DNA of 64,000 nucleotides from Eledone cirrhosa (GCA_964016885.1 OZ024744.1:42842001-42906000); one strand, 5' to 3'; counted from the first letter of the stretch, positions 3,801-58,872 are shown. Notes: generated by a model not told the origin, from the letters alone. A program made the numbers and translations.

Positions 3801-3830
3801 GAGATAAATAGATAGATATATAGTGTGTGT

Positions 3831-7361: not shown

Positions 7362-8888
7362 ACTATACAAGCTATGTATAAAGAAACAGTCAGCAAGGTT
7401 AGAATTAACAACGAATATAGTGAAGAGTTTAGCGTAAAAGTTGGTGTTCATCAGGGCTCCGTCCTTAGCCCCCCCCCCCCCTACTATTTATTATTGCCCT
7501 TCAGGCTATAACAGTGGAGTTCAAGACCGGCTGCCCATGGGAACACCTATACGCAGATGATCTAACGCTCATAGCTGAATCAATGGCCGAACTAGAGAAG
7601 AAATTCCAAACATGGAAGCATGGCCTAGAATCAAAAGGCCTTAAAATTAACCTGTCTAAGACTAAAGTTCTAGTTTGTAGGAAGGAAAATAGGGCACCGG
7701 TCCCATCTGGGAAATGACCATGCTCAGTGTGTAGGAAAGGAGTAGGTAGAAACTCCATTTTATGTCCCAAATGCAAAGTATGGGTGCATAAAAGATGTAA
7801 TGGGATCACAGGTAAGCTAACTAAGAACATAGATTTTATATGTGGTCGGTGCTCTGGTGCATTAAGTAGCAGCAAGTGCCCAAGAATACTAGCTCATTCC
7901 ATTGCACAGATGGTTCTATAGAAATAGTGGACAGCTTCCGTTACCTGGGTGATAAAATCAGCAGTGGGGGAGGGTGCTCTGAAAGTACAGTAGCTAGAGT
8001 CAGAACTGGATGGAAAAAGTTCACAGAGCTTATACCACTATTAGCCGTTAAAGGCCCTAAAAATGAAAGGCAGGCTGTATGATGCCTGCATATGAACAGC
8101 AATGTTACATGGCAGTGAGACCTGGGCATTGTGTGCAGAGGATATACGCAGACTGGAGAGGAACGAAGCTTGCATGCTCCGCTGGATGTGTAATAGTAAT
8201 ATACGTGAACGGCAAAGCATAAACGAACTAAGGGAAAAATTAGAAATAAGAGGGATCAGATGTTGTTTACTCGAGAGAAGACTACGTTGGTATGGTCACG
8301 TGATGCGCATGAAAGACGACAGCTGTATAAAAAAGTGCAGGGCAATAAAAATAGACGGTAGCCACGGAGTAGGCAGACCCAGAAAAACCTGGGACGACTT
8401 GATAAATTCCGACCTCACACACTTACACCTCTCCAAGACAATGTCACTCGACCGAGATCTTTGGCGCTACACAGTAATAGAGAAGACCCGCCTTACCTAA
8501 GTACAAAGTGAAACCTACTACAGTCAGTAAGCACCTCTAACAAAATACACCCCCGTCCCACTACCCCCACCCCATCCACACCACCCCTTTCAATGTAAAG
8601 TTATGTTGGTACCACAACATCCAGGTCGAAAAAAAAATGAGGTCGTGTAGGTGTCACGACAAAAAACACAGTCCACGCTATAATGTGGCCATGTAGGTAA
8701 CACGGTAAAAACCTCCCAGTTCCACACTGTAAATGTGGTTGGTGTTAGGAAGGGCATCCAGCCGTAGAAAACCCGCCAGAGAGTCCTATGCGAGCAAGAC
8801 AACCACTGTTGCCTCAAGTGGGAAAACTCCCGTCCAAACCCATGCAAGCTTGGAATATGGACGTTAAACGATGATGATGATGATGATG
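7362..8888 (+). mobile_element. 5'-truncated RTE LINE with PHD-like finger and (GAT)n tail
   Basis: GVHQGSVLSP, YADD, CSVCRKGVGRNSILCPKCKVWVHKRC...ICGRC, RLRWYGHVMR, GRPRKTW, 3' UTR and tail. Confidence 0.92.
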
Positions 8889-12750: not shown

Positions 12751-14058
12751 ATGGCTGAACTAGAGTTGAAATTCCAAACATGGAAGCATGGCCTAGAATC
12801 AAAAGGCCTTAAAGTTAACTTGTCTAAGAGTAAAGTTCTAGTTTGTAGAAAGGAAAATAGGGCACAGGTGCCCTCTGGGAAATGGCCATGCTCAATGTGT
12901 AGGAAAGGAGTAGGTAGAAATTCCATTTTATGTCCCAAATGCAAACTATGGGTACATAAAAGATGTAGTGGGATCACAGGTAAGCTATCTAAGAACGTAG
13001 ATTTTATATGTGGCCGATGCTCAGGTTCAATAAGTAGCAAGTGCCCACAGGATACTAGCTCCTTCTATTGCCCAGATGGTTCTATAGAAATAGTGGACAC
13101 TTTCTGTTACCTGGGTGACAAAATCAGCAGTGGTGGAGGGTGCTCTGAAAGTACAGTAGCCAGAGTTAGAACGGGATGGAAAAAGTTCAGAGAGCTTATA
13201 CTGCTGTTGGCCACAAAAGGTTTCTTTCTAAAAATGAAAGGCAGATTGTATGATGCCTGCATACGAACAACAATATTATATGGCAGTGAGGCAAGGGCAT
13301 TGTGTGCAGTGGATCTGCGCAGACTGGAAAGGAACGAAGCATGCATGCTCCATTGGATGTGTAACAGCTAAACATAAATGAACTAAGTGAGAAATTAGGA
13401 ATAAGAGGGATCAGATGCCGTTTACTTGAGAGAAGATTAGGTTGGTATGGTTATGTGATGCGCATGAAAGACAACAGCCATATACAAAATTGCAGCGTGA
13501 TCAAAATTGATGGAAGTTATGGAGTAGTAGACCCAGAAAAACCTAGGAACTTAATAAATTCCGACCTTGCACACTTACACCTCTCTAAGACAATGTCACT
13601 GGATTGAGATCTTTGGCGCCACTCAGTAATACAGAAGACCCTCCTTTCCTACGTGAAGAGTTAACCTACAGTCAGTAGGTCCCTCCAAACCAAACATACG
13701 CCCAAACCCACTACCCCTACTCCATGCTTCCACTCCTGCCAAAACCACCCTTTCTCTATAAAGTTACGTTGGTACCACAACATCCAGTCCAAACTAATGA
13801 GGTTTTGTAGGTGTCACGACAAAAAAAACAAAAAAACACATTCCACTTTGTAATGTGGTCGTGTAGGTAACACGGTAAAAAGCTACCAGTCCACTGTAAA
13901 TGTGGTTGGTGTTAGGAAGGGTATCCAGCCGTAGAAAACCTGCCAGATAGTCCTATACGAGCGAGACTTGGTCACCCAACCAATCTTTCCTCAAGTGGGA
14001 CAATTCCCTTCTAACCAATGCTAGCGTGGAAGATAGATGTTAAACGATGATGATGCTG
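12751..14058 (+). mobile_element. 5'-truncated RTE LINE with PHD-like finger
   Basis: ORF 12751-13371 with KGLKVNLSKSKV, GKWPCSMC...CGRC, VDTFCYLGD; 3' UTR and gatgatgatg tail. Confidence 0.92.
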
Positions 14059-14332: not shown

Positions 14333-14690
14333 GAGTGCTTGCAGTCAAAAGGTTGTGAGTTCAATTCTCAGACTGGGTGAAGTTGTTTCCTTGAGCAAGA
14401 CACTTTATTTCACATTGTTCCAGTTTACTCAGCTGTAGAAATGAGATGATAGGACTGGGGTCCCTATCATTCCACTGCAAAGTGGTCGTGGAGGTGCCAC
14501 GGCAAAAAAGGACCCAGCCCACACTATAAAGTGGACGTGTAGGCGCCACGGCAAAAAAGCACCCAGCACTCACTGTAAATAAGGTTGGTGTTAGGAAGGG
14601 CATCCAGCTGTAGAAATCAAGCCAGAATCAGTTCCCGTCCCACCCTTGCAAGCAGGGAAAAGCGGACATAAAATGAAAAGATGATGATGA
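14333..14690 (+). mobile_element. tRNA-derived SINE with RTE-derived 3' end
   Basis: B-box-like gagttcaattc, ccttgagcaagacactttatttcac core, RTE 3' UTR motif, gatgatgatga tail; matches 19325-19757. Confidence 0.8.
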
Positions 14691-19324: not shown

Positions 19325-19757
19325 ATCATCATCATTTTACGTCCGCTTTTCCCTGCTTGCAAGGGTGGGACGAGAACTGATTCTGGCTTTTTTTCTACAG
19401 CTGGATGCCCTTCCTAACACCAACCTCATTTACAGTGAGTGCTGGGTGCTTTTTTTCCATGGCACCTACACATCCACTTTACAGTGTGGGCTGGGTGCTT
19501 TTTTGCCGTGGCGCCTCCACATCCACTTTACAGTGTGGGCTGGGTGCTTTTTTGCCGTGGCACCTCCACGACCACTTTACAGTGGAATGAAAGGGGCCCA
19601 AGTCCCTATCATCTCATTTCTACAGCTGAGTAAACTGGAGCAATGTGAAATAAAATGTCTTGCTCAAGGAAACAACACATCACCCGGTCTGAGAATTGAA
19701 CTCACAACCTTTCGATTGCAAGGCCAATGCTCTAACCACTAAGCCATGTGCCTCCAT
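19325..19757 (-). mobile_element. Full-length tRNA-derived SINE with RTE 3' end
   Basis: Minus strand reads ggaggcacatggcttagtggttagagc (A box)...gagttcaattctc (B box), core, ~47-bp repeats, RTE motif, (GAT)n. Confidence 0.85.
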
Positions 19758-19898: not shown

Positions 19899-20677
19899 CT
19901 GAAAAAGGACTTATGTCCGAATTGCCTCTACTTTCTCATAAGTGTAATACTAATGAGGCTGTTCTTGCATCCCTGTGATTGTGTTGACATTCCTTTAACT
20001 ATATATATATATGCATAATGTGTGTATGTATATGTATGTATGTGCATGTATGTATGAATACGTTTATGTTTTTATATATGTGTGTGTGTATAATCCCCTC
20101 ATGTTATTAAAGCTCGATGTATTATTTAGGTCAAATCCTGTAAGTCACAAAATCCAGAGTGTATGATACTAGTAGTTGAAGACAGGAAAAATCACAGAGC
20201 ATAAATATTTCAGAGGAAGTAACTAAAGGCTTCACTCAGTTAAAACCATTTATTTCAATAAACGTTTCGATTAAGAGAGATATAATAGCAATTAACTTAA
20301 TTAATTATTCACTTAATTATATCAATGATACAAACATCTCTCAGAATCTCATTAGGAAACAGACTTATTTAGATGAGTAACTTGGTCCCATTATGTTATT
20401 GCACAACCAAGCATTCGAGAAGAAAAAGACACACAAGAAAAAGAAAAGAAAGACAACCTAGGTCAGGTACATGTTGAAAGGCACATAAATTTAAGCATTG
20501 TGGAGGAAGTAAGTTATGCAGTGAAATGAAAAATTGCTAAAGAGCACAAGTTTAGACAGAGAGACAAGTCACAATGTAAACCGAGAACAAAGATATTTAA
20601 GTTATGTTTGTTGTTATTCATTATGGTATTAGGTGTATTTAGTGAGAAACCCTTGCTAGCAGGGAAAGCAATATTAA

Positions 20678-20832
20678 CCTTTTAGCATTTACATTACTCT
20701 ATATATACTATTGTATTTTTGTGGTAAAGGCTTTACCTCACATAATTTTCTCACATAATATCGAATCTATGAGATTTTGATATTATTTATTTTGAGAACA
20801 ATACTTTAACATTAGTATGAGTGGCTGGTTAA
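20678..20832 (+). mobile_element. piggyBac-like MITE, 3'-truncated copy
   Basis: TTAA|CCTTTTAGCATTTACATTACTCTATATATAC...; single copy of the 72-bp unit sequence. Confidence 0.8.
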
Positions 20833-21689: not shown

Positions 21690-22003
21690 TGTAAAGTAGT
21701 TGTGTAGGTGTCACAACAAAAATCTCTCAGCCCACACTGTAAAGTAGTCGCATAGGAGTCACGACAAAAAGTTCCCAGTTCACACTGTAAAGTGGTCACG
21801 TAGGATCACGACAAAAAGCACGCAGCACATGCTATAAATGTGGTTGGTATTAGGAAGGGCATTGAGCCATAGAAACCTAGCCAGAAACATTTCTGTATGA
21901 GCAAGACACAGTCACCTGATCTGACTTGCCTCAGCTGGGACAACCTGTCTAACCAATGCTAGCGTGGAAAATGGACATGAAACAATGATGATTTTGATGA
22001 TGA
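21690..22003 (+). mobile_element. RTE 3' UTR fragment
   Basis: ~47-bp repeats, ggtattaggaagggcat motif, gatgatga tail. Confidence 0.8.
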
Positions 22004-23959: not shown

Positions 23960-24322
23960 TAGCCCACACTGTAAAGTGGTCATGTAGGTGCCACGACAAA
24001 AAGCACCCGGTCCACACTGTAAAGTGGTTATGTAGGTGTCACGACAAAATGCACTCAGTCCACACTGTAAAGTGGTCATGTAGGTGTCACGACAAAATGC
24101 ACTCAGTCCACACTGTAAAGTGGTCATGTAGGTGTCATGACAAAAAGCACCCAGTATACACTGTAAATGAAGTTGACATTAAGAAGGGCATCCAGCTGTA
24201 GAAACCAGGCCAAAATAAGTTCTGTATGAGCAAAACATGGTCACCTAATCTGGCCTATCTCGCAATGGGACAACTCATCTAACCCAAGCTAGCATGGAAA
24301 AATGGACATTAAATGATGATGA
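23960..24322 (+). mobile_element. RTE 3' UTR with ~4.5 copies of a 47-bp repeat
   Basis: cacactgtaaagtggtcatgtaggtgtcacgacaaaa repeated, then the conserved motif and tail. Confidence 0.85.
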
Positions 24323-24618
24323 TATGGATATGTACTATAACTGTATATTTAGTGTATGCAAACATGCCTGTGTAACCTTATGGCAGATATGGGCTCTGTA
24401 ACCCACAGGGAAGGCTCTGTGTCTCTTGGAGGACAGTTACTCCAAATGAATATAAATGCACAGGTTGAGTTAGACATGGGTTCCACAAGCCTTAGCGAAG
24501 GCGACCCATCTTGGAGAGCAATCACTCTGAATAAAAACTGATATTGAGTAGAGAAAGTACTGGTAGACAACTTTTCTATTGCTGGTAGCACGATAAAATA
24601 CTCCCAGTCCACACTTAA

Positions 24619-24835
24619 CCCTTTAGCATTTAAACTGGCTGTATCCAGCCAGAATTCTCTTACCTCTTTCTGTTCAACTGGCTATAACCTGCCTCTCATA
24701 CTGATGTTAAGGTATTGTTCTCAAAATATATATCAAAATCTCATAGATTCAAAATTGTGTGAGATAATTATGTGAGGTAAAGCCTTTACTATGAAAATAC
24801 AATAGTATATATAGAGTAATGTAAATGCTAAAGGC
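24619..24835 (-). mobile_element. piggyBac-like MITE (uninterrupted, 217 bp)
   Basis: TTAA at 24615-18 and 24836-39; TIR CCCTTTAGCATTTA / TAAATGCTAAAGGC. Confidence 0.9.
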
Positions 24836-25318
24836 TTAATATTTGTTTTGATAGAAAGGACATCTAGCCAGAAAAAAAACAAAAACATGTCAATATTATT
24901 ACAAGCTCAACTTGGAATATAAACACCAACTGTTATGAAATTAAAAGCCAAACTAATTAGTCAAATTAAATGAGATGCCATTTGTTTGTGTGCCAGGAAG
25001 GAGTACCACAGATACCTTCTTCTTAGTGAGACAAGTTCCTAGCTGTTGTGATCTGAAGAGATATGCAGGTAAACGTTCAAGTCGAGGCCAGGTGATGATT
25101 GGATGTCTACGTAAGCATTAATATATATGTATGCAAAAAGTAAACGTAAACAACAAAGCAAACTATTCAGTACAATGAAGAAATATATATATACACATTC
25201 TTGTACTACCTGGTTTACTATACTAGTGACTAGCCTGTGTCCTGCTGCACTGAATAATTTAGCCATTTCTACAATAATCCCCAAAGAGCAGCTACCTTCC
25301 CTATTTTCATTTCCTTAA

Positions 25319-25526
25319 CCCTTTAACATTTAAACCAGCCGTATCCAGCCAGAATTCTCTCACCTCTTTCTGTTCAAACTGGCTGCAACCGACCACTCAT
25401 ACTGATGTTAAGGTATTGTTCTCAAAATAAATAATATCAAAATTTTATAGATTTTATATTATGTGAGATAAAGTGTTTACTTTGAAAATACAATAGTAAA
25501 TATAGAGTAATGTAAATTCTAAAGGG
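25319..25526 (-). mobile_element. piggyBac-like MITE (uninterrupted, 208 bp)
   Basis: TTAA at 25315-18 and 25527-30; CCCTTTAACATTTA / TAAATTCTAAAGGG termini. Confidence 0.9.
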
Positions 25527-25859
25527 TTAAACAGTTTATCTACCATATTACTGTCTACTATGATGGTTGACCCCTCAGCTCAGTCTATTTGAGATAGACC
25601 AAACTCTTTCATAATTTAAACAGTAATGAATATTACGTGTTCTGTTTGCTTTTCAAAAGCATGCTATTATTTTTATTTTTATTTTCTATTCTTCTGAATG
25701 TGTTAAGTATATTTTTCCCTGAAGAAATGAAGATTTTTGCTTGAGTGCCATTTAAATTCTATATTCTGGCACTACATTTATCTCCATAGAAACAAATGTA
25801 GAAGTTAAAGATGGAATTTGAATAACAACTATGGTTTTCGTTTTGTATTAACCCTTTAT

Positions 25860-26433
25860 CATTTACATTACTCTATATATACTATTGTACTTTCACTGTA
25901 ATAGCTTTATCTCACATAATATCTCACATAACATTTACATTACTCTATATATACTATTGTATTTTCACTGTAATAGCTTTACCACATATAATATCTCACA
26001 TAACATTTACATTACTCTATATATACTATTGTATTTTCACTGTAATAGCTTTACCACATATAATATCTCACATAACATTTACATTACTCTATATATACTA
26101 TTGTATTTTCACTGTAATAGCTTTACCTCACATAATATCTCACATAACATTTACATTACTCTATATATACTATTGTATTTTCACTGTAATAGCTTTACCA
26201 CATATAATATCTCACATAACATTTACATTACTCTATATATACTATTGTATTTTCACTGTAATAGCTTTACCACATATAATATCTCACATAACATTTACAT
26301 TACTCTATATATACTATTGTATTTTCACTGTAATAGCTTTACCACATATAATATCTCACATAACATTTACATTACTCTATATATACTATTGTATTTTCAC
26401 TAATAGCTTTACCTCACATAATATCTCACATAA
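25860..26433 (+). repeat. 8 tandem copies of a 72-bp unit (left array)
   Basis: Units start at 25860, 25932, 26004 ... 26364; the last has a 2-bp deletion. Confidence 0.97.
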
Positions 26434-26646
26434 CATCTCGTATACGAGAGACGTGTATTGACGTGTGTGAACAAGCTCGGCTACCGAGTTGGATTTACTT
26501 ACTCAAAAGTGAGTTTTGATTAATTTTTTTATACTGTAATATACGTTAACCCCTTGCCTTGGTCGTCAAACTTTGAGTTTATTTATTTTCGCCCCTTTTT
26601 GGGGCGAATTTTCCAGTTAAAAATTTATTACAGCAAACTAATAGAA

Positions 26647-28346
26647 ATGGACGGAATTTTCACATCTAACGAGAAAGCCACGCCCCCTAAGAAAGGTGAT
26701 ACAGAGAAGCTAGAAGCACAAGGCTCTAAGTCTTCCCTCCTCACTTCTGCAAAAGAAACATGGAACACGGAATTAAAAGAAAAATTTGTAAAAATGGGTG
26801 AAAACCCAGAAAGTCACATAAACGCAGACAAAAACAACAATGACAATAACAGCAATAGTCACAACACCAACCAAGGAAAAAATAACGATAACACCAAACA
26901 AAGCGAACCCACTACTTTGCACAGGCGGTCCAGAAAACACAGACCTGCAAGCAACTGGACATTACAACTCTGAGAGAAAAGATGAAGGAAGCAAAACAGT
27001 ATGTAACTTTCAAAGAAGGAGGAGACTTCACAATCACCTCCCCACAAGAAATCAAAAGAGACACGATACTAAGAACGATATCGTTCAGAACACTTTCCAA
27101 CATAACAAGGAAACCAGCTCAATTATCCCAAAAAGAAATTGAGCTAGTCCTAAAAAATGTGTGGAGTGATATATCGTTCATACAAAAAGGGCCACTCTAT
27201 GGGAATATAACGGTGCTAATGAAGGATCAATTGACGGCCAGGAAATACTCTGTGGCACCAATTGTTTCCAAGCTACACACATTTTTCCCCACATATTTAG
27301 GGAAAAGAACGCAGAAAATAAGGGTCTCCGGAATCCGGCCAAATGCATGCATTTCCTGGGTACTAACAGGATTTTTAGAAGACGTGGATGGAATCCTCTC
27401 AGTAGGAGAAGTCACAACAGACGTTTTCGGCGGTTTGAGCGTGGAGGTCCTGGTCCAAATGAGACCAGAACGAATAGCTAGAATACCACAGAGGGTGTCC
27501 CTCGATGGAGAAACATTTATATATATTTCAGCCGAGGGTAGGAGGCCCATATGTTACTACTGTTCAAGCAGGGGTCATCTAAGGGCTGCCTGTCCTCAAT
27601 TGACAAAAAAAAAGGCTCTTTTGCCTACACCCCACACACCACCACTGCCACCACCACCACAACAACAACAAAAACAACATGGAAAAATAACACAAGACAC
27701 GGCCCCACCCAAAACAACTCCAAAAACACACACAAACACAACAAAACCCCAAAATACACCACTACCCGACAGAACGGACGAGGACCCAGCTGAAACGGCA
27801 CCTAGTGACGAAGAGGGGGGACCCTTCCAACCTGTAAAAAGGAAAAAAAGAAAGCACCACTCGAACATAAACAAAACAAACACACAACCACCAACAAAAA
27901 CAAAACAAACAGAACAAACAAAATCCGCCCCACCCCAAAACATAACACATACAACAAAACGTAAGCACACACAAGAACAACAAACAAACACAACACAAAT
28001 AAAACAGTATACATACATTAACACAAATAACAAAGAACTAGTAAAAACAATACACAAAGACCCTTCGGTGGAAACTGAAGGGCAATTCTTTGCAAGCGCG
28101 GCCAACAAACCGCATTTAAAAATGATAAGACTCCCAATGGACACCTATGCAAAACTAAGAGAGAACTTTCCTGAGGACGTGGGGGAAACATGTACTCGAC
28201 CCTATAACCGCGTCCTCTTGAAACGTTTCCCCACCCACACCTCACCAAACACCCCCACTCCACCACAGAACAACACCCCACCAAACAACCCCTCCAATAC
28301 GCCCATGGATATTGTGCAACCTGCTCCTCAGGAGCCGAACAGGTAG
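26647..28346 (+). pseudogene. Tx1-like ORF1 (gag-like, CCHC knuckle), one frameshift at ~26916
   Basis: ATG at 26647; adding one T at ~26916 gives PTTFAQAVQK and joins ORF 26982-28346; CYYCSSRGHLRAAC; Pro/Thr/Lys-rich tail. Confidence 0.8.
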
Positions 28347-28367
28347 GTCCTTCCTCTTTTAACCAAC

Positions 28368-31300
28368 ATGGCTGATATAAGAGTTGGGTGTCTGAATGTA
28401 CGCGGCCTGGGACTGTCTTGGAAACAAGGCAAACTTTTAAACGATCTCAGGTCGCATAGAATGGATGTAAAGGCTATTTGCGAGTCCAGGATCAGCAGCG
28501 AGCACCAACTGGCGCCCCTCTTCGACGACTTTGAGATCTTCGCATCTCTCTGTCAACCGGGGAATGGGGGTGGAGTTGTTGTTCTGCTGCGAAAACACCT
28601 GGGCCTCGCCATACAGAAGGTGCACCTGGACCCGGAGGGTCGACTGGTGGTTTTAGACGTCGGCAGTAGTGAAAGTGGAGCCCTTAGACTAATAGCTGTG
28701 TACGCCCCTTTTTGGGCAGCGCGGCCGGAATACTTCCAACGTCTGGAAACTTTTCTGGGAACGTCCCGCTCCTTGCTTTTAGTGGGGGACTGGAATGGTA
28801 TCCTGGATGCACGTTGGGACTATGTAGAGGCATGTGCCAATAGAGGGGGGTGTAAAAGCCTCAAAAGGTTAATCGGCCGATTTGACCTGGCCGATAGATA
28901 TCGACTAGATTTTCCGACTGTACCATTATGGACGTGGACCAATCGCAGCGGAACATCTAGGTCGTACCTAGATAGGGTCCTAGTTAGAGAGAAGGATAGG
29001 GACACATTTAGCTGTCCAAAAATGTTCATGGTTGACTATTCGGATCACAAGTTAGTGACCTGCATAGCCAAGCTTGATAGAACCCATAGACAGGAACCCG
29101 GTTACTGGAAGCTGAACTTGTCCTTACCGACAAGCAAAGCTTACAGTAAACGGATTAGCACGTTAGTTACGCAGAGTTTGACGGGGGCAATTGTCAACAA
29201 CAGGTGGTGGAGCTCTCTTAAGAGAGCAATTAGAATAGAATCGATAGGTTTTAGTCAGGAATTAGCAAGGGATAGGAACAAGACGGAAAGGGAATTAGTA
29301 GATAGAGTAGAAGAGGCGATTAGGAGTGGCAATGTAGCCGGCGTGCTGGCATCAAGAATGGCCTTAGACCAGTTCTTTGAGGTGAAGCATGAAGGCTGCG
29401 TTGTCAGGAGTAAAATACGTGCTCTGGGTAATGAGGGAGCCAAAGCTGTTAGCTGGGCCCGAGTGACAGAGGCAAAAAGTGGGAACAAGTCCACAATTCG
29501 GTCTTTGAAGGACCAGGATGGGCGTGTGATCCTTGAACCTGGGCAGATGTGTGCGGCCTTTCAGCGACACTTTGCACGACTGTTCGAGAGGGGCGGCGCG
29601 CCGGGTGGGACTATGGATTTCAATCCATACCTCGACGGTCTGCCGCGCCTCTCGGGAGCGGAGGCGAAGTCCTGCGAAAGGACGATTTCAGCTGCTGAGA
29701 TAGGGGCGGCGCTGAGCCAATGCGGCAAACGCAAATCCCCGGGTCTCGATGGTCTACCATACGAGCTATATGTAGCGATGCCGGACTTGTTCTCCGATAT
29801 CCTCGAAGCGGTCTACTGCAGCTGGCAGCAGAACGGGAGAATTCCCAGTTCTGTAACCAAGGGCGTAGTTACGCTGGTGAGGAAGGATGAGAACAAGGGG
29901 GATGACATAAGTAACTTCAGGCCCATAACTCTGCTAAATACAGAGTTAAAGATTTTGGCCAAGGTGTTAGCGAAGAGGTTGGCGCTTGTCGTCGGAAACC
30001 TGGTGGGAGAAGCGCAGACATGCGCAATCCCGTCCAGGACCATTCACGACAATCTCCAGCTTATGCGATACATCATAGAGAGGGTAGGGAATGAACCCGG
30101 CTTTGGTGGGGCCTTGATCAACTTGGATCAATCTAAAGCTTTCGATAGGGTTGACCATCGTTACCTGGATGCGGTGCTCGCGGCGGCAGGCTTCGGACCC
30201 GTTTTCAGGGGTTGGATTGCTGCGATGCACAGCAGCAACGTCTGCTCAAGGGTCAAGGTGAACGGCCACCTCTCGGAGCCGTTCCAAATCATGCGATCCA
30301 TCCGACAGGGATGCCCTCTCTCCTCCCTTCTGTATGTGCTGGCTCTTGAGCCACTACTGCGGAAGTTGGAGCGGTTGCAGGGCATCCCTTTGGAACCGGG
30401 ATTGCAGAAAGCGGCGTCGGCCTACGCCGATGACGTGACAGTAATGGTGTCGAAAACCTCGCAAATCGGTGAGATCGGCACCTTACTGGAGGAATATGAA
30501 AGGTTTACAGGAGCCAAGCTGAACCGGGACAAGTCCGTCGGTTTTCAACTCGGAACATGGAGAGGCAAACCGATGCCCTCCAATGACGTCGTCGGATGCT
30601 GGACGGAGGGCCCGGTGAAGCTGCTTGGGGTCTGGTTCGGACCAGACCTCCAGGTGGAGAAAAACTGGAACGAGGTAACGGCCAGGGTGTTTGCACTCAC
30701 CCAGAAGTGGGCCCAGTGCAAACTATCCCTGAAAGGTCGAGCGGAGGTGGCGAATACTTATATAGCATCCGTCATCTACTACCGCTTGACCGTCGTGCCT
30801 TGCCCAGTGAAAAGACTCGCCAAAATGGAGTGCGCGCTGTTCCAATTTCTTTGGAACAAGCGGACCCCTTTGGTGAGGAGATCCATCTGCTGTCAACACC
30901 CTTCGAAAGGAGGGCTGGGGATGCCGTGGCTACAGATGCGTAAACACGCATTAAGGCTATGGCACCTCCAGGTATTCCTCACCGGTCAACCGGTGTGGGC
31001 CCCGTTTGTGAGGCGAGCCTTTCCCAGACTCGTCTCGCTCACCGAGCTGCAATCCTGGGTCAAGCAAAGACCGAGAAAAGTGGGCGACTGGCACATTGTA
31101 TGTGCCCAGGCGCTCACGGCCCTCTGGAAAGCGGACCCGGCAATCAGTGGAGACTCCACCTAGACATTCTATAGAGGGTTGGTACGCAGCAGGTGCGACG
31201 ATGCTCTCGGAGAAGCTCTAGGCATGGAGGAAGATGAACTGGCCAGTCTGTTCGGTAGGACGTTTGGCCCTGGACCGATGGACAACTTCCAAAAGTCCCT

Positions 31301-31805
31301 GGCTTGGCAGTGCTACCGAGGGGCTCTACCCGTTCGAGACAAGCTCCACAGGTATGGGAGCCTGGGTAGAGATCCTTTGAATAAGATCTGTCCGAGATGC
31401 GTGCATGATGACGAAACCGTTGCGCACGCATTCGTACACTGCCCAGGCATTGCTGACCTGTGGGGCTATGTGGAACGACTACTGTCGAGGGTGGGACCAA
31501 TCCGGTTGATCACCGAGTCCATTGTCACGATCAAACCGCCTCCCCCTTTCAAAAACGAAGGAGAGGCGGTTTTTCTCTGTGTGATAGCCATGGCTAAAGA
31601 AGTTGTATGGTGGACGAGGCTGAAAGGGCTGAGGTCAGACACCTTTCTCTCCGGCCAACAACTGGTCCCCTTTTTCAAATACCATTTTAAAAGAAGGATC
31701 AGAATGGAGAGAGAGGTGCTCTACCCCAGCAAGTTTTATGAAAGGTGGGTGAAAGTAGGGAGAATGGCCAGAGTGAATGGGTCTTCTCTCTATATCAGCC
31801 TGTAG
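28368..31805 (+). pseudogene. Tx1-like ORF2 (AP endonuclease, reverse transcriptase, zinc-binding domain), one in-frame TAG at 31161-31163
   Basis: LNVRGL, VYAP, GDWN, SYLDRV, SDH; KSPGLDG, NFRPITLLN, DQSKAFDRVDH, RQGCPLS, AYADD; ORF 31179-31805 is in the same frame with CPRC...HAFVHC. Confidence 0.92.
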
Positions 31806-32042
31806 GTGAAAGAAGAGGAAAAAGAGGAGACGAGGGAAGCACCTACTCTTTGTGCTCCTGAGGAGAAGGGTTGCACATTTTTTCCGGGGTGTGTGCGACC
31901 CATGTTAATGCCCCCTCCCTATTGAGGACTTCGTTTGTTGTTGTTATTTCATTGTTATATTTTTGTACTCGTTAATTATATGTAAACTTCCCCCCTTGTA
32001 TCTGTCCCTACCTTTTGTGCCCTAGTGGCAAATAAAGAAACC

Positions 32043-33173
32043 ACTCTATATATACTATTGTATTTTCACTGTAATTGCTTTACCACATATAATATCTCAC
32101 ATAACATTTACATTACTCTATATATACTATTGTATTTTCACTGTAATAGCTTTACCTCACATAATATCTCACATAACATTTACATTACTCTATATATACT
32201 ATTGTATTTTCACTGTAATAGCTTTACCACATATAATATCTCACATAACATTTACATTACTCTATATATACTATTGTATTTTCACTGTAATAGCTTTACC
32301 ACATATAATATCTCACATAACATTTACATTACTCTATATATACTATTGTATTTTCACTGTAATAGCTTTACCACATATAATATCTCGCATAACATTTACA
32401 TTACTCTATATATACTATTGTATTTTCACTGTAATAGCTTTACCTCACATAATATCTCGCATAACATTTACATTACTCTATATATACTATTGTATTTTCA
32501 CTGTAATAGCTTTACCACATATAATATCTCACATAACATTTACATTACTCTATATATACTATTGTATTTTCACTGTAATAGCTTTACCTCACATAATATC
32601 TCGCATAACATTTACATTACTCTATATATACTATTGTATTTTCACTGTAATAGCTTTACCTCACATAATATCTCGCATAACATTTACATTACTCTATATA
32701 TACTATTGTATTTTCACTGTAATAGCTTTACCTCACATAATATCTCGCATAACATTTACATTACTCTATATATACTATTGTATTTTCACTGTAATAGCTT
32801 TACCACATATAATATCTCACATAACATTTACATTACTCTATATATACTATTGTATTTTCACTGTAATAGCTTTACCTCACATAATATCTCGCATAACATT
32901 TACATTACTCTATATATACTATTGTATTTTCACTGTAATAGCTTTACCACATATAATATCTCACATAACATTTACATTACTCTATATATACTATTGTATT
33001 TTCACTGTAATAGCTTTACCTCACATAATATCTCGCATAACATTTACATTACTCTATATATACTATTGTATTTTCACTGTAATAGCTTTACCTCACATAA
33101 TATCTCGCATAACATTTACATTACTCTATATATACTATTGTATTTTCACTGTAATAGCTTTACCTCACATAAT
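32043..33173 (+). repeat. 72-bp tandem array (right): partial + 14 full + partial units
   Basis: Full units start at 32105, 32177 ... 33041; the last unit from 33113 runs into the MITE right arm. Confidence 0.97.
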
Positions 33174-33425
33174 ATTGAATCTATGAGATTTTGATATTAT
33201 TTATTTTGAGAACAATACTTTAACATCAGTATGAGTATCAAATTACAGCTGGTTTGAACAGAAAGTGGTGAAAGAATTCCGGTCGGATACAGCCAGTTTA
33301 AATGCTAAAGGGTTAATTATTAATGCTTTGCGGCTTACACAGTCTTCATCTACCTGTATCTTATCACATTGAGCTTGACGTACATTACCAAAATAATAGT
33401 GGATTATTCCATTATTATATATATA

Positions 33426-34769: not shown

Positions 34770-35505
34770 AGTTGAAAGGCCTAAAAGTACATTTAACAAA
34801 GTCAAAAGGCCTAATAAGTAGGGAAGAAGACAAGATTGTACCATCAGGAAAGTGGCCTTGTTCAATACATCAGAAAGAGGTGGGCAGAAATTCCATAAAG
34901 TGCACTCAATGTAAGCTATGGATACGCAAGAGATGTAATGGGATTGCAGGCAGGCTAACGGAAAATATAGACTTTACATGTGGCAGATGCACTGGGGAAG
35001 TATGCACAAAGAGCACATGTGAAATAGATTCCCTCAGTTGCCAGGGAGGCTCCATAGAAGTTGTTGATAGCTTTCGCTGCCTAGGCAATCAAATTAGCTG
35101 AAAGATGATAGCTAGGATAAGGATAGGCTGGAAGAAGTTTAGAGATCTATTATCGCTGCTAACAACAAAATGCTTTTCCCTTAGAATGAAAGGTAGACTG
35201 TATGATGCCAGTGTGCAAACTGCAAGGTTATACGGCAGTGAAACGTGAGCCTTGACTGCAAATGACCTGCAGAGTCTAGAAAGAAATGAGTTGAGTATAC
35301 TCCAATGGATGTGCAATGTACATTAGTGACATAATATAAGTAAACTGAGAGAAAAACTTGGCATAAGAGGAATTGGATGTAGTGTACAAGAGAGAAGACT
35401 GCATTGGTATGGATATGTGATGTGCATGGAAGATGGTAGCTCCATAAAGAAATGCAGAGAAACCCATGGCTGGGACCTGTAGAAGAGGCAGACCCAGGAA
35501 GACAT
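34770..35505 (+). mobile_element. RTE fragment with PHD-like finger
   Basis: SGKWPCSIH...NSIKCTQCKLWIRKRC...FTCGRC, VVDSFRCLG. Confidence 0.85.
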
Positions 35506-37580: not shown

Positions 37581-39975
37581 CTACAAAGATGATGAACACT
37601 GCCTTTATGACTAAGGAATAATGGAAAATTAAAATAATAAAAAGTTTTGTTGATTTATTTTTATGCTGCTGTCTTTTGGTAAATTCTCCAAATGAGGAAC
37701 AGCAAAATAGATAGTGTGAAGTTTTCTAGTCTGTTGGTTTACAAAGTGTTTTTTTAAATAATAACCTCTGAGACAGGGTACAAACTACTTTCAAAATATA
37801 ATGAACAGCTGTCATACAATCAGCTATTAGTGTCACTATTGACAGCTAGTGTCTATAAAGACATGATCTGGGATATTTGAGATTTATTTGTCTGTCATAG
37901 AAAGTTGTAAAGTTTCCTATGGTTTAGTGTGTACTTCCGGCATTGAATTCATGTTCATAATTTTGAAGGTTTGATCCGCAGTCCCCTCCATACTTTGTTA
38001 GTGTAAGAAACTCTCAGGAGAACTAAACAGCAGAAGGTCTTCAGAGAAGATACCCTCTCAAGCAAGTGTTTTGGCCCTTAACTTACTGTGTTGTTCTTTA
38101 TTTAGAGTTACTGTTCTCCTAGTCAGGTTGCCTTTGATTCCTAGACTTGGTGGTGTATTTTGCTCTTAAACAATAAACTCTATTTTATGCTGTTCCAGTT
38201 GACTCAGTTGAAGAAAGGTGTACCAGCATCAGCAGCAGTTGGACATTGACCATTTTGAGATGGATTGTCATCCTATCCTGTGTGTGAGTTTTGAACACAT
38301 GCAACTGGGATAAGCTTCAGCCTAATGAACCACAGCGCTGGATAAAGACTTCCATCTTTTTTAACCCAGAAAGCAGAACAAAGCATCTCTCTTTATGGAA
38401 TTGGGTTGGTGCTATCCTAGACTTTTGACACAAGACAAAATACATGAATTTGTACAATCTATATATAGATTTCTCCAATTCTGTTACAACACATAAAGAG
38501 AGAGGTGTAGTTTGACTACCTCATACTACTCCTCTATCTTTACGTCTGCTGCCTGCATGTGTGTAAAAGGAAGGAAGAGGGTGGTGAAAAATCTATCATA
38601 AAATAGTGGCTGGTGTTCCATTTGTTTTACTGTGTTTGTGTGAATGTATGTCTGTGAGTGTGTATTTTTGTAAGTGTGTCTGTGTTTGCACGTTTATATT
38701 TATATACTCATACATATAAATGTATGCACATGCATACACATACACATCAGCATGTTGAAAAAAATCCTAGTATACAATAAATTAATGTTGTAGAAAATTC
38801 CAGCTGGTTATTGATTAACCCCTTCATTGCTATATTTTTAATAAAAGAGACATGGAGAGATTTATAAAAATTATTAATTATTTCATTACTAAGATTACTG
38901 GTTATTAAATATGACCATCCCCAAATATATATATTTAATAAAATGTTGTAGTTTGCTTGAAGCATTGTCTATAATATATAACTTTGAAAGAGATAGAAGA
39001 GTAAATTAATGCAAAATGACTGTAAGATGAGGTAACGAAAAGTAAGTTACCTGATAATCTTTGTTTTGTTTTTTGTTGTTGTTGTTCTGTTTTCTGTCCA
39101 ATATTTCGGGACCTAAAATTCCCTTCTTCAGGGTGTAAGGAACTTTCAATGGATAATGTTCCAATTTCCTCTCTTTGGGATTAAATTTTGATATATATAT
39201 ATATATATATTGCCATGACTAAAATGAATTGAGATGTGTTTAGAGAAATAGATTTATAGCCCCCCCCCCCTCTCTCTCTCTCTCTGTACATGCATGTCTG
39301 TAGTGACCAATCGTAAAATCACAAACTAAACAATGAAAAGATTATTACATTTTTTGCTAAATCATTCTTTATGTTGGAAGATTTTAATTTGAATAAGAAC
39401 TCTGTAAAATGATTTATATGTATGTAAATAATTAGTTTAGTGATTGACTATTATTATATTCACTAGCAGAAAAACCACCCTTCGCGTGGTTTTCTGCTAG
39501 CATGTGTAGTGTGTATATTGATATTATATGCAGGTATATATACATGTAGATAATGATACATCAAATAAAATCGTAATTGACAATATATAATACATAGAAA
39601 TTGAATGAAGACTGTGTTACACTGTCTTATTTAATCAATAATGTAATCCATGATACATTAAAAAACGACGATATATATAAACTGCATTAGGAGAAAATTA
39701 GTATGTTTATTTAAGCGATGGCCAACCGACTGTTGACATTTCAGAAATTTTAAAGAAGTGAATCTTTAAATAAACAAAACATATTTAATCAGCAGCCACA
39801 AAATTTAGTAGATAAATTATGTAATATTCATTCATTATTTATTCAAAGTAATCCAACTTATTTTACTCATGGGATAAAAAATTATAAACCGTACGCAGTC
39901 ACGTGTTCCTTACTTTATTATAGTTTAAATTTGCATTGGGATGTACACATTTCAAATTTTCCTAATACTTTTCAA

Positions 39976-40191
39976 CCCTTTAGTTACTCATAAGTTACAT
40001 TCCTTTATATTTTCTATTGTATTTTCATGGTAATGGCTTTATCTCACATAATATCGAATCTATGAGATTTTGATTTTATTTATTTTGAGAACAATACCTT
40101 AAAATAAGTATAAGCAACTGGTTGCGGCCGGTTTGAACAGAAATAGATGAGAGAATTCTGGCTGGATACAGCCAATTTAAAGGCTAAAGGG
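39976..40191 (+). mobile_element. piggyBac-like MITE (uninterrupted, diverged)
   Basis: TCAA|CCCTTTAG ... GCTAAAGGG|TTAA; single copy of the unit region. Confidence 0.85.
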
Positions 40192-40214
40192 TTAAGTCAA
40201 CTGCTTTGTTTATT

Positions 40215-40995
40215 TATGTGTGTGTGTATAGAAAAGAAGTAGGTGCTAACTCTATATGATGTACACAATGTAAATCTTGGATATGCAAGAGGTGTAGCGG
40301 GATAGCAGGAAGACTAACAGAAAAAGTAAACATTGTATGTGACAGTTGCACAGGGATAGTTGGTAGTAAAAGCAGCAATAAAATAAACGTTTTCCAATCC
40401 CAGGAAGGCTCCATAGAAGTGGTTGATAGATTTTGCTACCTAGGGGATAGAATTAGTTGGGAAAGATTATTCACCGAGAGTATAGTAGTCAGAGAAAAAT
40501 CAGGATGAAAAAAGTTCAGGAAGCTACTACCACTGTTCATAACAAAAGGTTTCTCTCTATAAAAGAAAGACCAGCTGTATGATGCTTATGTGTGATGAGC
40601 AATGTTGCATGGTAGTGAGACATGAGCTACGAATGCAGAGGACATGTGAAGGTTAGAGAGAAATGGTGCAACCATACTTCAATGGATATCCAATATTAAT
40701 CTGCGTGACCAAAAAACCATGGATGAGCTGAGATAAAAGTTGAATATAAGAAGAGTCAGGTGTAGTGTGTAGGATAGAAGACTGCGCTGGTATGGTCATG
40801 TGATGCATATGGATGATGATCAATGCCTGAAGAAGTGCCAAAAAATCCGAGTGGAAAGAAACTTCAGTTGAGGGAGACCAAGGAAGACTTAGACAGATGT
40901 GATGACGAAGGACCTCAATAAGTGTATGCTGTGCTGGAAAAGACCGATCAAGCCCATGCAAGTATGGAAAAACGGACATAAAACAATGATGATGA
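40215..40995 (+). mobile_element. Degraded 5'-truncated RTE
   Basis: PHD remnant, VVDRFCYLGD, RLRWYGHV, short GAT tail. Confidence 0.8.
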
Positions 40996-47150: not shown

Positions 47151-47652
47151 ATCATCATCATCATCATCATCATCACCGTTTTACGTCCGTTCTTCCATGC
47201 TAGCATGGGTTAGACGGGTTGTCCTGTTGAGGGCAGTGTCTGGTCGACTGACCATGCCTTGCTCATACAGGAACTGATTTTGGCTTGATTTCTACAGCTG
47301 GATGCCCTTCCTAACGCCAACCTCATTTACAGTGAGTGCTGGGTGCTTTTTTTCCGTGGCGTCTACATGTCCACTTTACAGTGTGGGCTGGGTGCTTTTT
47401 TGCCATGGCACCTCCACGACCACTTTGCAGTGGAAGGGTGTGGGGGCATATTATTGTCTATATGCTTCAGCTTGTACCCATGGGAGGTCGGGAACTCAGT
47501 ATTACTCGTGATGCCGAAGGGCACGGTCATGTGTCATTGCCTTTGAGAGGTGTAATTGGGTAAGGTCGGCTTTTATCACCTCATCCCAGGTCATCTTGGG
47601 TCAACCCACTCCGCGGTTTCCATTGATTTCTAGTGCTTTGCACCTTTTTATC
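47151..47652 (-). mobile_element. 5'-truncated RTE (3' end), abutting the satellite
   Basis: Reverse complement closely matches 2290-2761; (CAT)n tail. Confidence 0.9.
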
Positions 47653-47654
47653 AT

Positions 47655-50600
47655 TATGTGATGTGATGTGGAGAAAGACAGGTGTGTTAGGTAAGACACA
47701 GTGTGATGTGATGTGGAAAGACAGGTGTGTTAGGTGAGACACAGTGTGATGTGAAGTGAGACAGGTGTGTTAGGTAAGACACAATGTCATGTAAAGAGAG
47801 ACATGTGTGTTAGGTGAGACACAGTGTGATGTGGTGTGAAGAGAGACAGGTGTGTTAGGTGAGACAGAGTGTGATGTGAAGAGAGACAGATGTGTTAGGT
47901 AAGATACAGTGTCATGTAAAGAGAGACATGTGTGTTAGGTGAGACACAGTGTGATGTGATGAGAAGAGAGACAGGTGTGTTAGGTGAGACACAGTGTGAT
48001 GTGGTGTGAAGAGAGACAGGTGTGTTAGGTGAGACAGAGTGTGATGTGAAGAGAGACAGGTGTGTGAGGTGATACAGTGTGATGTGAAGAGAGACAGGTG
48101 TGGTAGGTGAGACACTGATGTGAAGAGAGACAGGTGTGTTAGGTAAGACACAGTGTGATGTGAAGTGAGACAGGTGTGTTAGGTAAGACACAGTGTGGTG
48201 TGGAGAGAGACAGGTGTGTCAGGTGAGACACAGTGTGATGTGAAGAGAGACAGGTTTGTTAGGTGAGACACATTGTGATGTGGAGAGAGACAGGTGTGTT
48301 AGGTGAGACACAGTGTGATGTGGTGTGAAGAGAGACAGGTGTGTTAGGTGAGACACTGATGTGAAGAGAGACAGGTGTGTTAGGTAAGACACAGTGTGAT
48401 GTGAAGTGAGACAGGTGTGATGTGAAGAAAGACAGGTGTGTTAGGTAAGACATAGTGTGATGTGGAAAGACAGGTGTGTTAGCTGAGACACTGTGATGTG
48501 AAAAGAGACAGGTGTGATGTGGTGTGAAGAGAGACAGGTGTGATAAGGTGAGACACAGTGTGATGTGGTGTGAAGAGAGACAGGTGTGTTAGGTGAGACA
48601 CAGTGTGATGTGAAAAGAGACAAGTGTGTTAGGTAAGACACAGTGTGATGTGAAGAGAGACAGGTGTGTACGGGTGAGACACTGTAATCTGAAGAGAGAC
48701 AGGTGTGTTAGGGTGAGACACTGTCATGTGAAGACAGACATGTGTGAAAGGTAAGACAGTGTGATGTGAAGAGAGAAAGCTGTGTTAGGTAAGACATCGT
48801 GTGATGTGGAGAGAGACAGCTTTGTTAGGTGAGACACAGTGTGATGTGGAGAGAGACAGGTGTGTTAGGTGAGACACAGTGTGGTGTTGAGAGAGACACA
48901 GTGTGATGTGAAGAGAGACAGCTTTGTTAGGTAAGACACAGTGTGATGTGGAGAGAGACAGGTGTGTTAGGTGAGACACAGTGTGGTGTTGAGAGAGACA
49001 CAGTGTGATGTGAAGAGAGACAGCTTTGTTAGGTAAGACACAGTGTGATGTGGAGAGAGACAGGTGTGTTAGGTGAGACACAGTGTGATGTGAAGAGAGA
49101 CAGCTTTGTTAGGTGAGACACTGTGATGTTGAGAGAGACACAGTGTGATGTGAAGAGAGACAACTTTGTTAGGTAAGACACAGTGTAATGTGGAGAGAGT
49201 CAGGTGTGTTAGATGAGACCTAATGTGATGTGAAGAGAGACAGGTGTGTTAGGTAAGACACAGTGTGATGTGGAGAGATACAGGTGTGTTAGGTGAGACA
49301 AAGTGTGATGTGAAGAGAGACAGGTGTGTTAGGTAAGACACAGTCTGATGTGAAGATAGACTGGTGTGTTAGGTAAGACAGTGTGATGTGAAGAGAGACA
49401 GGTTTGTTAGGTAAGACACTGTGATGGGGAGAGAGAGACAGGTGTGTTAGGTGAGACACAGTGTGATGTGAAGAGAGACCGGTGTGTTAGGTGAGACACA
49501 GTGTGATGTGAAGAGAGACATGTGAGTTAGGTAAGACACAGTGTGATGTGGAGAGAGACAGGTGTGTTAGGTGAGACACAGTGATGTGAAGAGAGACAGG
49601 TGTGTTAGGTAAGACACTGTGATGTGGAGAGAGAGACAGGTGTGTTAGGTGAGACACAGTGTGATGTGATGTGAAGATAGACTGGTGTGTTAGATGAGAC
49701 ACTGTCATGTGAAGAGAGACAGGTGTGTTAGGTAAGACACAGTGTGATGTGACGAGAGACAGTTGTGTTAGGTGAGACACAGTGTGATGTGAAGAGAGAC
49801 AGGTGCCTTAGGTGAGCCACAGTGTGGTGTGATGTGAAGAGAGACAGGTGCCTTAGGTGAGCCACAGTGTGATGTGATGTGAAGGCAGACAGGTGTGTTA
49901 GTTAAGACACAGTATGATGTTGAGAGAGACAGGTGTGTTAGGGGAGACAACAATGTGATGTGATTTGGAAAGACACGTGTGTTAGGTGAAACAGTGTGAT
50001 GTTGAGAGAGACAGTTGTGTTAGGTGAGACACAGTGCGATGTGTAGAGAGACAGGTGTGTTAGGTAAGACACAGTGTGATGTGAAGAGAGACAGGTGTGT
50101 TAGGTGAGACACTGTGATGTGGAGAGAGTCAGGTGTGTTAGATGAGTCACTGTGATGTGAAGAGAGACAGGTGTGTTAGGTAAGACAGTGTGACGTGATT
50201 TGGAAAGAGAGGTGTGTTAGATTAGACATAGTGTGATGTGAAGAGAGACAGGTGTGTTAGGTGAGACACAGTGTGATGTGAAGAGAGAAAGGTGTGTCAG
50301 GTAAGACACAGTGTGATGTGAAGAGAGACAGGTGTGTTAGGTGAGATACAGTGTGGTGTGGAGAGAGACAGGTGTGTTAGGTGAGACACAATGTGATGTG
50401 ATTTGGAAAGACAGGTGTGTTAGGTGAGACTGTGATTTGATATGAAGAGAGACAGGTGTGTTAGGTAGGGCACAGTGTGATGTGATGTAAAGAGACACAG
50501 GTGTGTTAGGTGAGACAAGGTGTGATGTGAAGAGAGACAGGTGTGTTAGGTGAGACACAGTGTGATGTGAAAAGAGACAGGTGTGTTAGGTAAGACAGTG

Positions 50601-56600: not shown

Positions 56601-58872
56601 GAGAGACAGATGTGTTAGGTAAGACAGTGTGATTTGAAGAGAGACAGGTGTGTTAGGTAAAACACAGTATGATGTGATGTGAAGAGAGACAGGTGTGTTA
56701 GATGAGACACTGATGTGGAGAGACAGGTGTGTTAGGTAAGACACAGTATGATGTGATGTGGAAAGACAGGTCTATTAGGTGAGACACAGTGTGATATGAA
56801 GAGAGACAGGTGTGTTAGGTAAGACACAGTGTCATGTGAAGAGAGACAGGTGTGTTAGATGAGACACAGTGTGATGTGAAGAGAGACAGGTGTGTTAGGT
56901 GAGACACAGTGTGATGTGGAGAGAGACAGGTGTGTTAGGTAAGATACAGTGTGATGTGAAGAGAGATGTGTGTTAGGTGAGATACAGTGTAATGTAAAGA
57001 GAGACAGGTGTGTCAGGTGTGACACAGTGTGATGTGAAGAGAGACAGGTGTGTTAGGTAAGACACAGTGTCATGTGAAGAGAGACACAGTGTGATATGAT
57101 GTGAAGAGAGAAAGGTGTGTTAGGGGAGACAACAATGTTGATGTGATTTGGAAAGACAGGTGTGTTATTTAGGACACAGTGTGATGTGAAGAGAGAATGG
57201 TGTGTTAGGTGAGACACAGTGTCATGTGAAGAGAGACAGGTGTGTTAGGTGAAACACAGTGTGATGTGAAGAGAGACAGGTGTGTAAGGTGAGACACAGT
57301 GTGATGTGATGTGAAGAGAGACAGGTGGGTTAGGTAAGACACCGTGTGATGTGAAGAGAGACAGGTGTGTTAGGTGAGACACAGTGTGATGTGGAAAGAC
57401 AGGTGTGTTAGGTGAGACACAGTGTGATGTGAAGAGAGACAGATGTGTTAGGTAAGACAGTGTGATTTGAAGAGAGACAGGTGTGTTAGGTAAAACACAG
57501 TATGATGTGATGTGAAGAGAGACAGGTGTGTTAGATGAGACACAGTGTGATATGAAGAGAGACAGGTGTGTTAGGTAAGACACAGTGTCATGTGAAGAGA
57601 GACAGGTGTGTTAGATGAGACACAGTGTGATGTGATGTGAAGAGAGACAGGTGTGTTAGGTGAGACACAGTGTGATGTGGAGAGAGACAGGTGTGTTAGG
57701 TAAGATACAGTGTGATGTGAAGAGAGATGTGTGTTAGGTGAGACACATTTTAATGTAAAGAGAGACGTGTGTCAGGTGTGACACAGTGTGATGTGAAGAG
57801 AGACAGGTGTGTTAGGTAAGACACAGTGTCATGTGAAGAGAGACAGGTGTGTTAGGTGAGACACAGTGTGATGTGATGTGAAGAGAGACAGGTGTGTTAG
57901 GGAAGATACAGTATGATGTTGAGAGAGACAGTTGTGTTAGGTGAGACACAGTATGATATTGAGAGAGACAGTTGTGTTAGATGAGACCTAGTGTGATGTG
58001 AAGAGAGACAGGTGTGTTAGGTGAGACACAGTGTGATGTGGAAAGAGACAGGTGTGTTACGTGAGACATATAGTGATGTGAAGAGAGACAGGCGTGTTAG
58101 GGGAGACAACAATGTTGATGTGATTTGGAAAGACAGGTGTGTTAGGTGAGACAGCGAGATTTGATATGAAGAGAAACATGTGTGTTATGTAGGACACAGT
58201 GTGATGTGATGTGAAGAGAGAATGGTGTGTTAGGTGAGACACAGTGTGATGTGAAGAGAGACAGGTGTGTTAGGTGAGACACAGTGTGATGTGAAGAGAG
58301 ACAGTTGTGTTAGGTAAGACACAGTGTCATGTGAAGAGAGACAGGTGTGTAAGGTGAGACACAGTGTGATGTGATGTGAAGAGAGACAGGTGTGTTAGGT
58401 GAGACACAGTGTGATGTGAAGAGAGACAGGTGTGTTACGTAAGACAGAGTGTGATGTGAAGAGAGACAGGTGTGTAAGGTGAGACACTGTGATGTGATGT
58501 GAAGAGAGACAGGTGTGTTAGGTGAGACACAGTGTGATGTGAAGAGAGACAGGTGTGTTACGTAAGACAGTGTGATGTGAAGAGAGACAGGTGTGTTAGG
58601 TGAGACACAGTGTGATGTGGTGTGAAGAGAGACAGGTGTGATAGGTGAGACACAGTGTGATGTGAAGAGAGACAGTTGTGTTAGGTAAGACACAGTGTGA
58701 CGTGAAGTGAGACAGGTGTGTTAGGTGAGACACAGTGTGATTTGATGTGAAGAGAAACAGGTGTGTTAGGTGAGACAGTGTGATGTGAAGAGAGACAGGT
58801 GTGTTAGGTGAGACACAGTGTGATGTGATGTGAAGAGAAACAGGTGTGTTAGGTGAGACACAGTGTGATGTG
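47655..58872. repeat. ~11.2-kb satellite, ~40-bp unit (gtgtgatgtgaagagagacaggtgtgttaggt(g/a)agacaca)
   Basis: Continuous tandem array with 2-5-bp indel variants; about 280 units by length. Confidence 0.98.

Follow-up and report, generated by a model that had tools for sequence, protein, structure and literature searches.

The nested element of the window

The window analysed here is a stretch of 64,000 nucleotides (G000:C28:42842001-42906000) from an animal genome of 3.0 Gb. It holds a 5.6-kb long interspersed nuclear element (LINE) with apurinic/apyrimidinic endonuclease (APE) and reverse transcriptase (RT) domains, lying within a 220-bp piggyBac-type MITE (a miniature transposable element with inverted repeats) and flanked on both sides by arrays of a 72-bp unit. 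The order is TTAA, MITE left end, 8.0 units, LINE, 15.7 units, right arm, terminal inverted repeat (TIR) and TTAA. This nested architecture (25848..33316) was reproduced, in coordinates and repeat counts, as the preliminary description of the window had claimed it, and comprises the following features.

25848..25851, plus strand: left TTAA target duplication of the MITE
25852..25869, plus strand: MITE left end, 14-bp TIR plus 4 nt
25860..26436, plus strand: left array, 8.0 units of 72 bp, 97% matches
26408..26436, plus strand: putative target-derived leader, 25-29 nt, nearly invariant ahead of full-length LINE copies, with predicted pairing to the 5' untranslated region (UTR)
26437..32042, plus strand: LINE body, 5,606 bp, ~98% identity to other copies, without poly(A)
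26647..28346, plus strand: open reading frame (ORF) 1, ~578 aa when intact, with a CCHC knuckle; window copy frameshifted near its start
28368..31805, plus strand: ORF2, 1,145 aa when intact, with APE endonuclease, RT and C-terminal Cys/His region
31806..32042, plus strand: 3' UTR, with AATAAA at 32031-32036, 6 nt ahead of the 3' junction
32043..33175, plus strand: right array, 15.7 units of 72 bp
33176..33316, plus strand: MITE right arm, including the right TIR (33299-33312) and TTAA (33313-33316)

Four other MITE copies with one unit each were confirmed in the window, two of them with corrections (a missing right part in one, a degenerate left end in another).

24615..24839, minus strand: single-unit copy, complete
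25315..25530, minus strand: single-unit copy, complete
20674..20830, plus strand: single-unit copy, right ~70 bp gone
39967..40195, plus strand: single-unit copy, left end degenerate

The Pfam domains of ORF2 are Exo_endo_phos (PF03372), RVT_1 (PF00078) and zf-RVT (PF13966), and its best solved relative is the L1 ORF2p (E=1.5e-53), with R2 at 8e-24. ORF1 carries a single CCHC zinc knuckle (CX2CX4HX4C), a feature of the Tx1 clade, whose match to Pfam zf-CCHC (E=0.0055) is below the cut-off of that model. The Tx1-clade features found are thus the N-terminal APE, the RT and the C-terminal Cys/His region of ORF2, the ORF1 knuckle and the preference for a target sequence, and by domains and target preference the LINE appears to be a Tx1-like APE/RT element. 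A database protein named Tx1-like shows 30% identity to it and falls on a long branch with an open node in a FastTree of 40 proteins, built without Tx1L, Keno, Kibi and Koshi references.

The window copy is broken by a frameshift in ORF1, between 26892 and 26973, and by a stop in ORF2 at 31161-31163. The family counts ~300 copies, sampled at 60 loci picked by their 3' junction and at 2 more; both LINE ends are present in 58 of these 62 loci, three copies are 5'-truncated and one gave no alignment. The mean pairwise distance among sampled copies is 1.3-1.4%. ORF1 is kept in 21 of 59 copies (window copy included), ORF2 in 18/59 and both in 10/59; since both frames are intact in these ten, and the closest pairs are nearly identical (0.02-0.1% apart), the LINE is young and probably still active. 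Head-to-tail copies, with 1-20 units between them, are frequent (e.g., six complete copies at C1:4.22-4.26 Mb). Contigs of three unclassified sequencing runs span the element and the MITE junction, RNA ends not being inferable from them.

The MITE shows the TTAA duplication and the TIRs starting with CCC expected of non-autonomous piggyBac elements, and its exact left end occurs 11,333 times genome-wide. An autonomous piggyBac of 2,575 bp, with a 561-aa DDE_Tnp_1_7 frame, was also found (copies L259-L267, e.g., G000:C1:205014261-205018313; two are 100% alike); nine copies compared are 96.9-100% alike, and the element, as judged from these copies, is young and probably active. It has in common with the MITE 17 of 18 nt at the left end (typical MITE) and an identical first 9 nt at the right end; the LINE target is not among this common sequence. 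The movement of MITE and LINE as one composite, which the preliminary description had considered possible, was not seen: no pair within 3% occurs among 37 LINE-bearing right arms, a sample of about one eighth of the LINE copies, and no arm-flank records within 6 mismatches were found among 105. Foreign elements break the MITE unit at recurring places, L003 and L179 having one insert in common and L127 and L208 another.

Site-specific insertion and the target-derived leader

The junctions between LINE and MITE are exact to the base. Genome-wide, a 21-mer from the LINE 3' end has 359 exact matches, and 279 of these are followed, two bases on, by ACTCTAT, that is the MITE target, at a site directly after position 18 of the MITE left end; at the other end, 296 of 306 exact 5' ends are preceded by the 10-mer CACATAACAT, in one shared junction. 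Reversed control patterns gave 0 matches, compared with 33,740 for the array junctions, 306 for the LINE 5' ends and 359 for the LINE 3' ends. When the first 30 3' ends are taken in positional order, all copies with at least 97.6% identity (21/21) stand on the target, and the remaining nine are 74-86% identical sisters, eight of them in TATC repeats. Such TATC-type repeats lie at the end of 19 of 20 fetched off-target loci, five of which are shared with the 30-locus positional sample. Of the best 30 3'-end matches, 29 run on into the unit, and L009 does so with the first 9 nt only. Judged on these alignments, insertion into the MITE is strictly site-specific. The proposal of a sequence-specific Tx1-like LINE using a non-autonomous piggyBac as dispersed landing site is therefore supported by base-exact junctions at 5' and 3', and, once the flanks of both retroelement ends are tabulated, unrelated flanks are not the rule, the sampled off-target ends belonging to (TATC)n sister families.

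At least two sister LINE families reside in (TATC)n (L238-L257), frequently in head-to-tail stacks and some with full ORF2 frames. They occupy the interiors of large contigs, from which the MITE-targeting family is missing; that family and the perfect-unit arrays concentrate near the ends of large contigs (C1-C3) and on small contigs (C8, C10, C19-C27), and an exact-end search found no LINE 5' end between 31 and 423 Mb of C1. Sister and MITE-targeting ORF2 adjoin in the FastTree and are 80% identical overall, with 71% in the endonuclease and 88% in the RT. Since sister families with 71%-identical endonucleases use different targets, the evolution of targeting becomes testable.

Across 49 full-length copies, a single mismatch in 1,225 positions was counted in the final 25 nt of the unit that precedes the LINE; neighbouring units have 78 in 3,350 (p=6e-10, the units not being independent). 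The first 36 nt of the preceding unit vary as in other units. Because a near-invariant tail stands beside an ordinarily variable unit start, 25-29 nt of target, on this sequence evidence, travel with the LINE as an element-borne leader. By prediction, the leader's two CACAUA repeats form pairs with two GUGUG repeats in the 5' UTR (z=-3.3 in L139, 0/200 shuffles; z=-2.3 in the window copy). No hepatitis delta virus (HDV)-like ribozyme was found at the LINE 5' end, with no near-threshold Rfam match and 0 matches of our own descriptor, in a crude test of one copy each in which that descriptor matched 3 of 30 shuffles.

Full-length LINE junctions show a uniform 7-bp target loss, whereas truncated copies retain those 7 bp and have either duplicated target (9, 6 and 9 bp) or lost 2 bp. 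Three array loci hold LINE remnants of just 50-130 nt, hence very early aborts of insertion do occur. At L138, a 51-bp local duplication with private variants is followed by the leader tail; at L142, LINE body position 3830 directly follows the leader. The idea of a uniform 65-bp duplication of the target was rejected, as the units flanking the LINE differ like array neighbours and truncated copies show 6-9 bp; LINE excision as source of the junction was rejected by reasoning, the missing 7 bp not being restorable. Immediately ahead of the upstream 10-mer, 41/56 singles have a G, versus 10/27 LINE-bearing copies (p=0.003), a difference set aside because the samples were drawn differently.

Origin of the 72-bp arrays

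Exact 72-bp array junctions number 33,740 genome-wide (~2.4 Mb). The first 70 MITE left ends comprise 56 single-unit and 14 array copies, a proportion that, like the others given here for single and array MITEs, comes from positional samples biased to distal C1. By their right arms, single, array and LINE-bearing MITEs are equally old: pairwise divergence is 14.6% for singles (54 arms), 14.8% for array-only copies (10) and 17.6% for LINE-bearing ones (37), with 16.6% in 22 further arrays. The unit tails, on the contrary, lie merely 1.8-2.6% from one majority sequence. A 13-bp subrepeat is present in 31/54 singles, in 0/206 internal units 3' of LINEs and in 3/101 internal units of LINE-free arrays, and at 14/14 loci, window included, a last unit without subrepeat goes with 72-bp internal units; in the right array of the window, a 12-bp subrepeat is present in internal units and missing from the last one. 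A single junction dominates, in 95/101 cases in LINE-free arrays and in 182/206 3' of LINEs. Microhomology for it is lacking in the typical MITE, and of 10 loci whose upstream 10-mer is private, 7 never have that 10-mer copied into a junction. Internal unit tails mismatch the local last unit, and the imported tail is the leader sequence.

Because units in old, unrelated MITE copies share one young tail and one junction, ignoring local variants, the array units are, as far as these comparisons tell, imported in trans and not locally duplicated. Given equal arm ages, foreign tails and a shared junction, neither local slippage nor one transposed array subfamily can explain the arrays. The claim that the LINE multiplies its own target has indirect support in units that are imported in trans and end in leader sequence; that the LINE is the importing agent is what we infer.

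On balance, we lean towards a young site-specific LINE with target-derived leader, whose endonuclease and RT would seed 72-bp arrays in unrelated MITE copies. The LINE is taken as importer because the unit boundary falls on the LINE insertion base, imported tail and leader are one sequence, near-empty insertions occur and read-through is suggested, namely by an AATAAA placed 6 nt from the LINE end together with the absent poly(A). A bottom-strand nick by the LINE endonuclease would fall at the site, with a top-strand nick ~6-9 nt downstream, and LINE RNA reading beyond AATAAA into target units would prime by annealing, hence the lack of poly(A). At full length, leader cDNA would anneal to the unit tail: upstream within an array this would give the uniform 7-bp target loss, and downstream in a single-unit MITE a ~50-bp duplication, as at L138. 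Reverse transcription aborting inside the read-through units would insert units alone; arrays would subsequently grow, and LINEs be lost, through slippage and unequal exchange, every added unit being a fresh target. As far as the accessible text of the sources goes, R1Bm requires read-through RNA (PMC7265360), and the priming and annealing steps have precedent in R2, R1 and SART1 (PMC3774820, PMC7265360).

More tentatively, and a little short of what we would call probable, the LINE may have moved from (TATC)n to the MITE, taken 25-29 nt of the target into the 5' structure of its RNA and come to write most arrays by abortive insertion into thousands of old MITE copies, thereby building its own habitat. 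If so, the arrays would amount to a dispersed minisatellite with no fewer than 33,740 junctions, every one of them offering a fresh landing site, in a process comparable to repeat addition by telomerase at internal sites.

Several observations weigh against the LINE as writer of the arrays. Arrays were thought to occur solely in the occupied MITE copy, which holds inside the window and fails genome-wide: no LINE lies in 10 of the 13 array clusters that come first on C1, and the 14 arrays among the 70 left ends include 3 with LINE, 8 reaching the right arm without one (8/11 resolved) and 3 unresolved, three loci being common to the two samples. Arrays whose first unit is perfect number 79; of 30 such loci examined, 23 are LINE-free, 2 have a full LINE, 3 a 50-130-nt remnant and 2 are unresolved. 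As arrays make up a large share of target sites, LINE enrichment there needs no causal link. Donor-type heads are found in 29/54 first and 31/57 last units (p=1.0), that is without import polarity. Unit variants compared with LINE relatedness gave p=0.25 for the adjacent 5' unit and p ~0.045 for the first two 3' units, among six uncorrected tests, and LINEs 0.02-0.12% apart differ in flanking units and unit counts. Array tails are 1.8-2.6% from the majority and so seem older than the LINEs that were sampled (0.8%). Finally, in a young MITE subfamily of 8 among 123 arms (two single-unit members, five with arrays and one with the LINE; L311, L314, L290, L296, L298, L235, L170, L159), the unit region differs by 8.4% and the arm by 3.3% (2.5 times), which equally fits DNA-level exchange. 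Two modes of import were not supported: one-sided import, first and last units being equally donor-type, and multi-unit transduction with full-length copies, by the unit/LINE co-inheritance tests.

Exchange at DNA level is indeed the strongest alternative, less probable in our judgement and yet to be taken seriously. Arrays would spread by ectopic gene conversion or unequal exchange among MITEs, perhaps triggered by endonuclease nicks, without reverse transcription, and the LINE would have taken its leader once from an array junction and now exploit the arrays. Import without polarity, weak or null co-inheritance of LINE and units, the LINE-free majority, array tails older than the LINEs and the mosaic ages of unit and arm would all follow, but not the coincidence of the unit boundary with the LINE insertion base nor the identity of imported tail and leader. 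The uniform 7-bp loss is simplest with a junction predating the first insertion (cf. the 7-bp deletion of a springtail R2, in the accessible text of PMC3774820); at L138, however, the LINE insertion itself bears the 51-bp local duplication and the leader tail, and the 50-130-nt remnants at junctions are near-empty insertions. LINE 5' ends and arrays are both frequent in sampled distal C1, which does not tell the two models apart.

Improbable, and largely refuted, is a single origin of the array within a MITE subfamily, or repeated origins through local slippage, with piggyBac transposition as the means of dispersal and the LINE arriving afterwards. Array arms are as diverse as single arms, and 34 of 69 array or LINE arms have a single as their nearest neighbour; the tails of internal units mismatch the local last unit, and the dominant junction lacks microhomology in the typical MITE and ignores local variants at 7/10 loci. 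The young autonomous piggyBac would fit such dispersal, as would the five array members of the eight-arm young subfamily, which nevertheless includes two single-unit members, and the local heads found throughout some arrays; comparable models are reviewed for other MITE-borne satellites, in the accessible part of PMC12628747. Lastly, a non-specific LINE striking a satellite by chance, for which the abundance of arrays (33,740 exact junctions) might speak and to which, according to the preliminary description, common LINE-free array MITEs such as those found would point, is clearly excluded by base-exact junctions in hundreds of copies and deserves practically no credence.

Known systems and further repeats

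Tx1D of Xenopus laevis has internal tandem repeats and a fixed duplication of ~23 bp. The Tx1L/Tx1D and Tx2L/Tx2D pairs of this species resemble the present case in that an APE-type LINE has a specific target within a non-autonomous piggyBac (accessible text of PMC4494074, PMC1950540, PMC6719617). Compared with Tx1L/Tx1D, the array here is polymorphic (56/70 sampled MITEs single-unit) and imported into unrelated copies; full-length copies show the 7-bp target loss and a target-derived leader, truncated ones 6-9-bp duplications, and the host is probably an invertebrate. We thus look upon the arrangement as a variant of the Tx1L/Tx1D kind, in which the element-borne target leader and the trans-imported arrays look new.

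Other Tx1-clade families sit on DNA transposons or microsatellites, such as the crocodilian Tx1-Mar in Mariner-N4_AMi and Kibi and Koshi in (TC)n and (TTC)n, as far as given in PMC4494074; similarly, 80%-identical sisters lie here in (TATC)n. Those families show a preference, and no target arrays are described for them in the accessible text of PMC4494074, whereas insertion here is base-exact, and both target types, transposon and microsatellite, are used by close sisters within one genome. In an octopus, active L1-Tx1 and piggyBac families are reported, their targets not being given in the accessible part of PMC13282606.

R2 is described, in the accessible text of PMC3774820, with RNA starting 9-36 nt upstream in the 28S rRNA, a uniform 5' junction bearing a small, fixed deletion, tandem duplications on occasion and, in the R2 model, a target strand that pairs with element RNA and so propagates the fixed deletion. 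The leader seen here, from DNA alone, and the uniform 5' junction are alike; R2, however, has a restriction-like endonuclease and an HDV-like ribozyme, a fold not found here at the LINE 5' end, and its duplications are of one or few copies, not dispersed arrays. Variable tandem arrays in non-autonomous DNA transposons are known from the MITE-internal satellites Xstir, miDNA4, DTC84 and Tetris, for which replication slippage, stem-loop excision and rolling circle are the models, with no site-specific LINE, in the accessible text of PMC12628747. A site-specific LINE seeding its own target arrays in dispersed MITEs was not found in literature titles and abstracts, outside subscription papers, supplements and Repbase. 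The present element is a further clear example of a transposon-targeting LINE, probably still active, and has what appears to be an R2-like target-derived leader in an APE-type element; should the LINE indeed write the arrays, this would be a route to dispersed satellite DNA absent from the accessible parts of the literature cited.

Other repeats were also noted in the window. A satellite with 40-bp period extends over 11 kb (47662-58872), with 80/85-bp higher-order variants. A second dispersed repeat has 2-4 internal tandem units and occurs in both orientations.

2490-2595, 14479-14579, 19429-19584, 21690-21826, 23964-24167 and 47326-47432, both orientations: second dispersed repeat, units of 48-49 bp

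A further interspersed repeat is present in 5 copies, 60-88% alike, at 1765-2160, 7883-8372, 12970-13527, 35108-35489 and 40299-40872.

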